Source of the DNA: Candidatus Babeliales bacterium
GTDB lineage: Bacteria > Babelota > Babeliae > Babelales > Vermiphilaceae
Reading direction: 5' to 3'
Length of the DNA stretch: 64,000 bases
NCBI GenBank assembly: GCA_963743635.1
Contig: CAVUQO010000003.1
Coordinates: forward strand, 480,001 to 544,000
This document shows positions 20,830-29,099 of the stretch, in pieces (within the stretch, counting starts at the first letter, position 1; every line of letters begins with the position of its first letter). The translations under genes were made by a program, and so were the position numbers. The notes under the pieces are model-generated. The model was not told where the DNA came from and did not search any database. It saw only the letters and a list, made by a program, of their open reading frames with translations.

Positions 20830-20938
20830 TAATGTGAGTTTGCAATGCATTGAGTCATTGCATTTCGCAGTTGAGATTCGATAGATTGGTCTTCACCGTA
20901 ATAAAAATCTTATTTTGCTGTATGAAGGAAAGAACGAT

Positions 20939-21679
20939 ATGAAAATATTGAAAAAAATAACGCTGATAATGCTTGCATGTGCTCTCTGCAGTCAACCGAT
21001 ATTGGCGATGAGTGAAAAAATGCTGGAAAAATATAAAAAACAAGAACAGGAAAAAAGGGAAGCGGAAGCAAGGCGGGAAGCTGCAAAAAAAAGAGAAGAA
21101 GAGATAAGTAAAGAATGCGCAATCTGCTTGGAGGGGATGAAAGAATCTGATGATCTTGCAACTTTATCGTGCAAGCATACGTTTCATAAAGAATGCATTA
21201 AGGATTGGTTAAAGCGGCAAACAACGTGTCCGGTATGCAGAAACCCTATCTCTCAACAAGATCAAGACGTTATTAATGCAGTAAAAAAGATTGAAAAAGG
21301 TAAACAGCCTGCTCGAGCGGGTGAATCATCACGTATGGGTGAGCAACGAGGTCAACGGCAAGCGGCAGTTGAGGATATCGAAGCAAGGGATCAGTATGGT
21401 AGGACTGCATTGCAAAGAGCAGCGATAGCGGGTGATTTTGATTTAGTAAAGACGCTGATCGCGCGTGGTGCGAATGTTAATACGAGAGATAATCACCAAA
21501 ATACACCATTACATGATGCTGCATGGTACGGTCACAACTTTGTCATAATAGCACTTGCAAACGCCGGAGCCGACGTTAATGCCCGCAATAGACATGGTCT
21601 TACACCGCTCGGTAAGGCTCATGCTAATAATAAGACAAGAGAAGAGCGCATTTTGCGGGATATATATCACGCGCGATGA
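20939..21679 (+). CDS. Secreted RING-H2 + ankyrin repeat protein (candidate E3 ligase effector)
   Basis: CAIC-x15-CKHTFHKEC-x10-CPVC; ankyrin motifs GRTALQRAA, QNTPLHDAA, GLTPLGKA; shared leader. Confidence 0.92.
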   Translation: MKILKKITLIMLACALCSQPILAMSEKMLEKYKKQEQEKREAEARREAAKKREEEISKECAICLEGMKESDDLATLSCKHTFHKECIKDWLKRQTTCPVCRNPISQQDQDVINAVKKIEKGKQPARAGESSRMGEQRGQRQAAVEDIEARDQYGRTALQRAAIAGDFDLVKTLIARGANVNTRDNHQNTPLHDAAWYGHNFVIIALANAGADVNARNRHGLTPLGKAHANNKTREERILRDIYHAR

Positions 21680-21775
21680 GAAATTTCTTGAGAACGGGAT
21701 ATTCGCGTAACAGGGCGTTTTGAAAGAGCGTAAGCTGATAAGTTTGAATAATGAAAAAATATGTAAATAGCCGAT

Positions 21776-22040
21776 GAAGCGGAATGGGCCGGAGCATCAG
21801 CTAATATCTCGGTATATTATCGCACTCCTGATAACAAACTCATGAAATATCATTATGAGCACAAAGAACACGAAAAAGAAATAAAAGTACCAGAAGACGA
21901 TATAACTAATTCGTATGAAGCGGCTGCTATTGAAACAATGATTAATGGCGTGAAAGAAAGTATCTCAAAAGAAGAATTGCTTTAGCATATTCATCGCGAC
22001 TAATAAAAATACGTGTCCTGCCTATCCTGGTGGGGCACGT
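21776..22040 (+). repeat. About 265-bp direct repeat: orphan copy of the 3' end and terminator of the 22088 gene (other copy 24254-24518)
   Basis: Encodes AGASANISVYYRTPDNKLMKYHYE...KESISKEELL*; 21812-21934 identical to 24290-24412. Confidence 0.92.
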
Positions 22041-27600: not shown

Positions 27601-28096
27601 TGTCGTTTATTCAGTAGCATTTTCACGCGATGGAAGAAAGATAGTGACGGCGTCTTCGGATAATACGGCGAAGATATGGGATGCAGATACTGGCACATTA
27701 TTGCATACGCTGACGCATCCAAATCAAGTTTATTCAGCAGAATTTTCAGCAGATGGCACGCAAGTGTTGACGGCGTGTAGGGATGGTAATGCAAGAATAT
27801 GGAATTCAATAAGCGGTATCATTGTCTTCACATTGGATTGCGGAGATTCTGACAGAGCAGCAGCGTTTTCACGCAGTGGTCATGAGATAGCGACGGGTAC
27901 CGGTGATGGAAACGTGAAAATATGGACGTTAGGCGTTGCATTTAATTTTGATCAAGCATTGTTAGCGCAACTCTTAGCATGGGCAGCGCAGCATGATAAA
28001 AAAATAAGCATTAGGCTAAATACATGGGCTGGGGATGCTTGGAACATGGCCCATAAAGAATTGCGTGAAAAGTATCAGAGCGCGGTGCAGAAATAA
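24621..28096 (+). CDS. Secreted paralog of 22088 with added C-terminal WD40 propeller; leader (24621..) is one base out of frame with the body (24788..)
   Basis: Signal peptide and PPALKP in frame 0; YRRL..EEK, WMSGHG, VAGM, LLPLLVDKNSRFCYVSSC in the -1 frame; WD repeats AKIWD, ARIWT, VRIWN, VKIWT. Confidence 0.85.
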
Positions 28097-28124
28097 TATG
28101 TTATTCGATTGCAAGGAGATAACG

Positions 28125-29099
28125 ATGAATATGTTGAAAAAAATAACGTTGATAATGTTTGCATGTGCGCTGTACAGTCAATCGATGTTGGCGATGAGTG
28201 AGAAAGCGCTGGAAAAATGGAAAAAAGTAGAGCAAGCAAAGAGAGAAGCGGCAGCCACAGCTCGTAAGCAAACCGTATTATCATTTGATATTGATGACGT
28301 TATCAGTGGAAAAGCAAAAATAGGAATTAGTGATTATCTTACGTTGGTGCTGCGCATGATGCTTTGGAATCCGATGGTGGTCACCGCACTCTTTCCTGCT
28401 AACCAAGCGGCAATGAGTCAGTATGTTACTGAAATACAAAAAACGGTGAATGGTGGTTCAAACGTCGTGCACGAAATCATAGGATATTTAAAAAATAACG
28501 GCTATGGCGATCTTTCTTGTTACGAGCCTGAGATTATTGAACGTTCGCAAAAGCCATATCCCGTAACGCGTATGATTGATGATATTAAAAAGCTCAAAGC
28601 AGCAGGTTACAGCGTTATAGGTGCGACCAATCAGGATTATATGCAGCATCAGGCATATCGGCGGTATATGAAAGACGTCCATGGTATCGATCTCAATACA
28701 CTCTTTGATGCTGTGTTGACGACGTGCGTGTATCATGCTGCGCAACCGGCTGGTGATGATTTATGCTACCGACTCAATGCAACAGACAATATCTATGTAG
28801 CGCGCAATCGTGAAGCTTATAAACCGCATTCCAGTTATTTTACCGTCGTTCAAGAATTGGCCAAAAAAGTTGAGCCAACAAGTACGCGCGTTATACATAC
28901 TGACGATAGAAAAGAGAATATTGACGCGGCGGAACAAGCGGGCATAGAAGGCATTCATTTTAATCTGCCAGGAGAAAGTGTCCGCAAAACAACTCCTGCT
29001 GATCTGGATAATAGTATCAATGCCTGGGAAGCTGAGCTAAAGGGTTTGGGCATTCAGGGGTTAGCCGTCCAACAAAATTCCCAAGCGGCATACGTTTAA
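28125..29099 (+). CDS. Secreted HAD-superfamily hydrolase
   Basis: Shared leader; FDIDDV (motif I), ATNQ (II), YKP (III), TDDRKENIDAA..AGIEGIHF (IV). Confidence 0.85.
   Translation: MNMLKKITLIMFACALYSQSMLAMSEKALEKWKKVEQAKREAAATARKQTVLSFDIDDVISGKAKIGISDYLTLVLRMMLWNPMVVTALFPANQAAMSQYVTEIQKTVNGGSNVVHEIIGYLKNNGYGDLSCYEPEIIERSQKPYPVTRMIDDIKKLKAAGYSVIGATNQDYMQHQAYRRYMKDVHGIDLNTLFDAVLTTCVYHAAQPAGDDLCYRLNATDNIYVARNREAYKPHSSYFTVVQELAKKVEPTSTRVIHTDDRKENIDAAEQAGIEGIHFNLPGESVRKTTPADLDNSINAWEAELKGLGIQGLAVQQNSQAAYV

Follow-up and report, generated by a model that had tools for sequence, protein, structure and literature searches.

The effectors of some eukaryotic pathogens, namely the RxLR and CRN proteins of oomycetes and the PEXEL proteins of Plasmodium, are built from a signal peptide, a short conserved element within about 20-40 residues and effector domains that are unrelated to one another. 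Here we analyse a 64,000-nucleotide stretch of DNA from a Candidatus Babeliales bacterium (positions 480,001 to 544,000 of the forward strand of contig CAVUQO010000003.1, assembly GCA_963743635.1; hereafter the window), in which three genes on the + strand, beginning at window positions 20939, 22088 and 28125 and named here by these starts, share an N-terminal leader of about 45 codons in front of different bodies. The reading that we favour, and consider fairly probable from the sequence comparisons, is that these genes carry a reusable export leader in which a charged helix beyond the signal peptide cleavage site has been kept by selection, and that this leader has spread by capture of gene 5' ends. 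The leader joins a known kind of shared-leader family, and its distinctive point is a conserved core that lies past the cut site.

In their layout the RxLR, CRN and PEXEL proteins resemble this leader, though they belong to eukaryotic pathogens, and on reading the alignment of the seven leader copies described below we found neither of their motifs, RxLR and RxLxE/Q/D. Among bacteria, the Erp families of Borrelia burgdorferi (OspE-related, OspF-related and Elp) are multi-copy genes with similar promoter and upstream DNA, an 'upstream homology box', and Elp stands for 'OspE/F-like leader peptide', being named for a leader like that of OspE and OspF (PMC7002432 and PMC12242104). They have in common with the present leader both shared upstream DNA and a leader peptide that recurs across multi-copy genes, but they are lipoproteins encoded on cp32 prophage plasmids and their common part stops at the lipobox, whereas the leader described here has no lipobox Cys, sits on chromosomal neighbours, is best conserved past the cut and has no sequence relationship to them. 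The mature proteins of the Erp subfamilies are reportedly unrelated, which Akins et al. in 1999 are said to have explained by recombination.

The SVM proteins of phytoplasmas are secreted effector candidates with a peculiar modified secretion signal (PMC11287381). Like the proteins considered here they are effector candidates of a host-dependent bacterium and carry a characteristic signal peptide; they differ in that no Pfam family, and hence no SVM signal model, matches more than one of the seven leaders. We know of no counterpart of the post-cut helix in SVM proteins. Bacterial polymorphic toxins are also modular, with diverse C-terminal domains delivered via a common N-terminal part (PMC12605009). 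They differ in that they rely on specialised secretion systems, immunity genes and toxic cargo. An ecological parallel is offered by the intracellular bacterium Chromulinavorax destructans (Dependentiae), for which a putative signal peptide is reported on 44% of coding sequences and on 78% of ankyrin-repeat proteins, with Sec proposed as the export route; a shared leader or post-cut motif is not described in the accessible part of that paper (PMC6561590). A limited literature search by title or abstract returned no description of a conserved post-cleavage leader on bacterial effectors.

On the + strand between 20915 and 29099 the window holds four long genes, 20939-21679, 22088-24463, 24621/24788-28096, which is broken by a frameshift, and 28125-29099. 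The three with the leader are open reading frames (ORFs) of 246, 791 and 324 amino acids (aa) respectively. Comparison by BLASTP gave N-terminal matches with 30 of 41 residues identical between 20939 and 22088 (E 2e-15), 33 of 44 between 20939 and 28125 (E 8e-17) and 36 of 50 between 22088 and 28125 (E 6e-18), corresponding to 72-75% identity over 41-50 residues. Every other segment of the three proteins beyond the N-terminus aligned at E > 2, and when a 22088-family alignment was compared as a profile with the 20939 and 28125 proteins only 38 and 46 leader columns aligned. Within the window, self-blastn paired 28125-28261 with 22088-22224 (85.4% over 137 nucleotides (nt), E 3e-34), 28113-28255 with 20925-21069 (82.1% over 145 nt) and 22068-22211 with 20919-21062 (80.6% over 144 nt), the E values of these pairs spanning 8e-25 to 3e-34. 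When all stop-to-stop frames of 30 aa or more (1137) were scanned with a leader profile, the three genes came back with E values of 1e-25 to 1e-27, followed by two weak relatives, the leaders of the 24621 gene (E 4.6e-4) and the 14674 gene (E 2.5e-3), and by nothing else below E 0.68.

An earlier note on this DNA had described about 45 codons common to the three genes with divergence thereafter, and on this BLASTP, the profile and self-blastn agree. It had further placed the conservation at DNA level, including the ribosome-binding site. The leader DNA is indeed 80.6-85.4% identical, but the sharing upstream of the ATG is confined to 20 nt for 20939/22088 and 12 nt for 20939/28125, with 0 nt for 22088/28125. 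Each of the three genes has a GGA or GGAG Shine-Dalgarno sequence 7-12 nt 5' of its ATG, which for 20939 and 22088 falls in the untranslated stretches at 20919..20938 (+) and 22068..22087 (+), as delimited by the self-blastn ends and the upstream sequence.

Beyond the leader the three bodies are unrelated, as had been proposed, since neither BLASTP nor profile comparison aligned them outside it. The first gene (20939..21679, +) continues with a RING-H2 domain at residues 59-101 (Pfam, E 4.7e-16) and ankyrin repeats at residues 146-224 (E 6.8e-16), in agreement with the label that it had been given. In the second (22088..24463, +) the leader is followed by a linker and a body without a known family; the term 'protease-like', previously applied to it, finds no Pfam match and no PDB relative for the 22088-family profile, the best Atlas score of 0.82 is a lead only and the AlphaFold2 model of the family has a predicted local distance difference test score (pLDDT) of 35. 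This body does have a GHG...C motif, conserved in its paralogue at 24621 and in one of the further leader proteins described below (P0004). The third gene (28125..29099, +) begins 28 nt past the stop of the 24788 ORF, itself a 22088-type paralogue, and carries a DxDxV motif I about ten residues past the leader. Its earlier designation as a HAD protein is only weakly supported: the motif, a Pfam HAD_2 match (E 0.0026, 18.4 bits) that lies under the 23.8 cut-off and Atlas feature scores to HAD clusters of 0.91-0.93 faintly suggest a HAD-like hydrolase. No PDB relative was found by sequence.

The gene between the second and third leader genes (24621..28096, +) encodes a paralogue of the 22088 body (40% identity, E 4e-156; sequence comparison) with a C-terminal WD40 propeller (Pfam, E 4e-32), and has another signal peptide of the same broad type without the conserved helix. 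Its frame is broken at an A-run near 24755 into ORFs 24621-24812 (a 63-aa leader) and 24788-28096 (a 1102-aa body). One extra A in the near-identical DNA of another contig (L001, below) lets the frame read through at this A-run; either the assembly is wrong here or the frameshift is genuine.

Residues 1-23 of the leader (20939..21007, 22088..22156 and 28125..28193, all +) were delimited by alignments and a hydrophobicity scan, with the cut placed from the sequence. They comprise a Lys-rich n-region (in the window copies Lys or Asn at 2 and Lys-Lys at 5-6), a hydrophobic core of 13-16 residues whose best 10-residue Kyte-Doolittle mean is 2.67-2.80, a Gln-Pro/Ser c-region and Ala at -1, which fits a Sec-type signal peptide with a predicted signal peptidase I cut at A23/M24. 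When four further copies from protein libraries are added to the three of the window, Ala stands at -1 and Met at +1 in seven of seven. There is no lipobox, as Cys is absent from +1 in all seven leaders and the Cys of the h-region is not conserved, and the seven-leader alignment contains no twin arginine. Type IV prepilins and pseudopilins are marked by Gly at -1 and Glu at +5 before a hydrophobic helix; in all seven leaders the residue before the core is Lys, Ile, Asn or Gln, not Gly, and no Glu follows. Curated signal and trafficking families include YSIRK, KxYKxGKxW, ESPR, SVM signal, LXG and MIX. When the seven leaders were compared with Pfam and NCBIfam, no family matched more than one of them, the best E values being 0.033 (Pfam) and 0.0053 (NCBIfam); ETRAMP matches to a single leader (E 0.0053 and 0.061) were judged compositional.

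The same features bear on whether the leader is cleaved at all. An uncleaved signal anchor would make these type II inner-membrane proteins that hold their domains in the periplasm on a charged stalk, and a Met or Ile at -3 in place of a classical small residue, together with a stalk-like helix directly after the core, would suit such an arrangement. The core is short (13-16 residues), however, its c-region is polar with Gln-Pro/Ser and Ala is found at -1 in every copy; in addition RING, ankyrin and WD40 domains would seem to have no evident periplasmic role, and we regard an anchor as unlikely. The Met at +1 could alternatively be a relic or an alternative start, left when a signal cassette was put in frame before older genes, in which case M24 might also give rise to a cytoplasmic isoform. 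In favour of this, the window has about 13 N-termini that resemble signal peptides and end in [AG]-M-[DSEQN], and in a second leader family, described below, the DNA homology stops inside the signal peptide with the junction Met retained. Yet no Shine-Dalgarno sequence precedes the M24 ATG in any of the three genes, where GGA/GGAG precedes the first ATG, the leader homology runs 20 codons beyond the Met, and BamA shares this junction, as one would expect of a cleavage-site preference of a general kind; a relic start is therefore a slimmer prospect still. The N-termini with [AG]-M-[DSEQN] are those of the genes at 4401, 12289, 13370, 14674, 20939, 22088, 24621, 28125, 30141, 31945, 53031, 54052 and 57618(-), while by reading about 11 other signal peptides in the window end in an ordinary Ala/Ser-x-Ala. 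The A/M junction may reflect an unusual preference in cleavage site or be a class mark of the organism.

Past the predicted A23/M24 cut the conserved stretch runs for a further 17-21 residues. For the 20939 protein, single-sequence AlphaFold2 modelling gave a generally poor result (mean pLDDT 51) but placed one helix over residues 2-69, with mean pLDDT values of 82, 94 and 89 for the three 10-residue blocks of residues 21-50, so that residues 24-44 of the leader are modelled as a charged helix of about 18-20 residues. In the window this segment lies at 21008..21073 (residues 24-45 of the first copy), 22157..22222 and 28194..28259 (all +; the last delimited by alignments and identity counts). 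What follows it differs between the proteins: the helix carries on into the RING domain in 20939, a Pro/Ala/Ser-rich linker comes next in 22088 (about 45 residues), P0002 and P0004, and in 28125 the first HAD motif is reached after about 10 residues.

Conservation of this stretch exceeds that of the signal peptide in front of it. Averaged over the 21 pairs of the seven copies, identity is 65% in the first 17 aligned mature positions versus 46% in the 23-residue signal peptide, and for the 18 pairs that include a copy from outside the window it is 63% versus 41%. The seven-sequence alignment has eight invariant columns, six of which fall between -1 and +11. For the three window leaders the Nei-Gojobori method over 44 codons gave a synonymous divergence (dS) of 0.42-0.78 and a ratio of non-synonymous to synonymous divergence (dN/dS) of 0.23-0.27, with values of 0.16 and 0.28 for the helix half in the two pairs where dS was defined. 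From these dS and dN/dS values and the bias in identity we conclude that the leader copies did not arise by very recent duplication and that selection constrains the helix at the level of protein sequence, more strictly than the signal peptide; the synonymous changes in the leader speak against a purely RNA-level constraint. The conservation of about 20 residues past the cut as a charged helix, part of the earlier description, is thereby upheld.

The leader could alternatively be an ordinary Sec signal peptide followed by a passive early-mature spacer, with no second sorting step, the helix being kept for Sec targeting and cleavage efficiency or as a stiff stalk that holds the cargo off the membrane. 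Charged, helix-prone stretches also follow the signal peptides of 12289, 13370 and 14674, the helix of the 20939 model enters the RING domain directly in a stalk-like manner and the leader matches no known sorting family, all of which would agree with a spacer. A spacer should nevertheless tolerate substitution, yet it is the mature stretch that is the better conserved (65% versus 46%) and that holds six of the eight invariant columns, and the 24621 paralogue is built without the helix. We treat a passive spacer as a tentative alternative that deserves to be kept in mind but that we rather doubt.

The exhaustive HMMER search with a profile of the three leaders, run against 1.84 billion representative proteins at E<=0.001, returned six proteins, of which four are true N-terminal copies, with residues 1-44/47 aligned to profile positions 1-44/46 exactly at the N-termini. 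The remaining two, P0005 and P0006, were internal-repeat matches and were dropped as spurious. P0002 (240 aa, leader E 1.3e-12) and P0007 (175 aa, E 1.2e-4) have low-complexity bodies of no family. P0003 (348 aa, E 7.9e-8) has a body that is weakly Ulp1/C48-like (Peptidase_C48, E 0.016, under the cut-off), and P0004 (691 aa, E 3.2e-6) shares with 22088 a short GHG...C core (67 residues, 28% identity, E 3e-4; E 0.004 with the 24621 paralogue), which makes an ancestral link of the leader with a 22088-type body only a possibility. Stretches in P0003 and P0007 that looked UIM-like by eye had no Pfam support at E<=10. With four additional copies on other bodies, the leader behaves as the discrete, reusable module that the earlier note had supposed.

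The copies seem to come from very few genomes. P0004 was placed by a 5.8-billion-cluster library on one contig of 818,594 bp, a length equal to that of the contig of P0001, the window's own protein; for P0002 the longest of three contigs is likewise 818,594 bp, and for P0003 and P0007 the longest is 594,567 bp. We infer that at least five leader copies lie on the window's own contig and that a further contig, of this genome or a related one, carries the other two. The family thus apparently comprises at least seven copies, is lineage-restricted and very narrow, and derives from one or two genomes. Other searches added nothing to it: a word-index search for longer proteins with the three-leader profile passed one of 2490 candidates, which was the window's own protein, the leader region of 28125 as query gave one candidate and none that scored, and a scan of genome contigs with the leader profile gave 599 pattern matches and 0 confirmed.

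The same contig scan with the 22088-family profile gave 28 pattern matches and one locus (L001), on a contig of a metagenome-assembled genome labelled Bacteroidales. Nucleotides 1-2549 of this contig are 99% identical to window positions 23014-25572, with several frameshifts in the 22088 homologue, while 2550-12550 holds Bacteroidales-type housekeeping genes (ECF sigma factor, RRF, UMP kinase, EF-Ts and S2). The contig looks like an assembly chimera.

Signs of local turnover surround the leader genes. Between the RING-ankyrin gene and the 22088 gene lies an orphan duplicate of the 3' end of the latter (21775..22038, +), comprising its final ~70 codons and its terminator hairpin but neither start codon nor leader. 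It is 94% identical to its source at 24253-24516 (16 differences in 264 nt), with a dS of 0.077 and a dN/dS of 0.64, as would be expected of a recent, decaying remnant. The hairpin itself, at 24491-24516, was the sole useful result of a promoter and terminator scan whose counts otherwise fell below those of shuffled sequence (18 vs 23.5 and 6 vs 7.8). One could picture the RING-ankyrin body as having taken the place of the central part of a recent 22088 duplicate, but in this simple form the idea was dropped, since the leader dS of 0.78 is ten times the fragment dS of 0.077.

An orphan 3' fragment between two leader genes, together with a constant N-terminus and variable C-termini, also recalls polymorphic toxins, and the earlier note had inclined towards a polymorphic-effector-like system, in which a constant N-terminal trafficking domain would serve a dedicated secretion machine and toxin modules would be exchanged, with orphan cassettes left alongside. 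The comparison fails on several counts. No known trafficking domain matches the leader (best E 0.0053, with no family in more than one copy of the seven). The bodies that it carries are RING, ankyrin, HAD-like or of no known family and show no recognised toxin fold, and the orphan fragment, rather than supplying an alternative module, duplicates the 3' end of the gene next to it. Inspection of the ORF list, where no systematic search was made for immunity genes, showed no obvious small gene downstream. Of the explanations considered here a system of this kind is the hardest to credit.

How the leader may have moved is illustrated by a second leader family upstream, at 12251-12331, 13338-13410 and 14634-14716, which comprises two paralogous coiled-coil genes and an unrelated 124-aa gene. 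The genes at 12289, 13370 and 14674 have in common some 40 nt of 5' untranslated region and the signal peptide, at 87.8-89.3% DNA identity; at protein level 17 of 23 residues (74%) are identical (E 5e-10), and the body of 14674 is unrelated. In the 14674 copy (14634..14716, +) the shared element extends over the 5' untranslated region and the first ~14 codons. This is the leader that had been named as a possible relative of the main one, a kinship that holds weakly (E 0.0025). Intergenic flanks are repeated in the same region, 14351-14444 with 13143-13235 and 15120-15184 with 14403-14467. The simplest reading is 5'-end capture among adjacent secreted-protein genes, whereby gene 5' ends would have undergone local duplication and recombination, illegitimate or homologous, and so have spread a leader through a cluster of secreted-protein genes, neighbouring genes would have captured it, and purifying selection at the protein level would then have retained it.

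Several points weigh against a selected, mobile export leader. The dS of 0.78 between the 20939 and 22088 leaders is far above that of the orphan fragment (0.077), and the bodies match the window in G+C content (41.6-44.4% against 41.9%), which gives no sign of recent import. All seven copies carry Met or Ile at -3, which signal peptidase I tolerates but which is not classical for it. The selection estimates come from 44 codons, a small sample, and seven copies, possibly from one genome, leave conservation across species unproven. Neither protein library returned the 20939 and 28125 proteins, and because both miss these proteins of the window itself the counts of leader copies are lower bounds.

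With these points in view we still favour a reusable export leader with a selected post-cut helix. Its signal peptide would probably use Sec to bring the cargo to the periplasm. Genes for BamA, for signal peptidase I (two of them) and for a GspE/PilB-type ATPase are present in the window and point to a diderm with Sec and a type II or type IV-pilus-like machine. The helix, staying on the mature protein, would then be a second sorting or handling signal, and it could serve in recognition for outer-membrane passage, in chaperoning for secretion competence or in contact with a host factor. From its conservation alone we infer such a second role, and a translocation role of the leader is plausible. 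Domains of the RING-H2, ankyrin and WD40 types characteristically belong to proteins acting on eukaryotic cells, which suggests a host-associated bacterium. A bolder version, which we hold to be rather unlikely though not negligible, is that leader and helix form a bacterial two-step tag of the RxLR or PEXEL kind, leading first through Sec and then out, possibly into a host cell, for a cargo of RING E3 ligase, ankyrin, HAD-like and Ulp1-like proteins recruited by 5'-end capture of neighbours.

Other genes of the window were noted in passing. The two signal peptidase I genes stand in tandem at 43052-44050 (332 aa) and 44066-45004 (312 aa), the NCBIfam model having 162 positions. The topA gene and the gspE/pilB-type ATPase gene are each in two ORFs, and the ORFs of sufB and gltX match their family profiles only in part (split or partial ORFs at 34233-34610 + 32363-34219 (-), 47358-47963 + 47976-49148, 50262-51065 and 2279-3361 (-)); these could be assembly indel errors or gene decay. 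At 18704-20284 a signal peptide, a weak match to APH-type kinases (E 2.6e-4, under the cut-off) and ankyrin repeats make up another effector-like gene with a different leader. Directly after the third leader gene, 29125-29994 encodes a stand-alone class-II glutamine amidotransferase domain behind a short hydrophobic leader whose end immediately precedes a Cys, which we take to be the catalytic N-terminal residue of the family and which removal of the leader would presumably expose. On the minus strand, 3848-4300 (-) encodes a GNAT protein above the NCBIfam cut-off for aminoglycoside 6'-N-acetyltransferase group E (161 vs 140 bits).

The delivery of proteins with eukaryote-like domains by uncultured host-dependent bacteria is largely unexplained; many of these proteins have plain signal peptides, which alone reach only the periplasm. 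If the helix is merely a spacer, this locus holds an ordinary small family of paralogous leaders. As a conserved post-cut element on unrelated cargo, however, the helix is a concrete and testable candidate for the missing second signal. With its two families of leaders, its repeated flanks and the orphan 3' fragment, the locus further shows in one place how a leader can pass between genes, and the leader would give a simple sequence handle with which to catalogue the effector set of such genomes.

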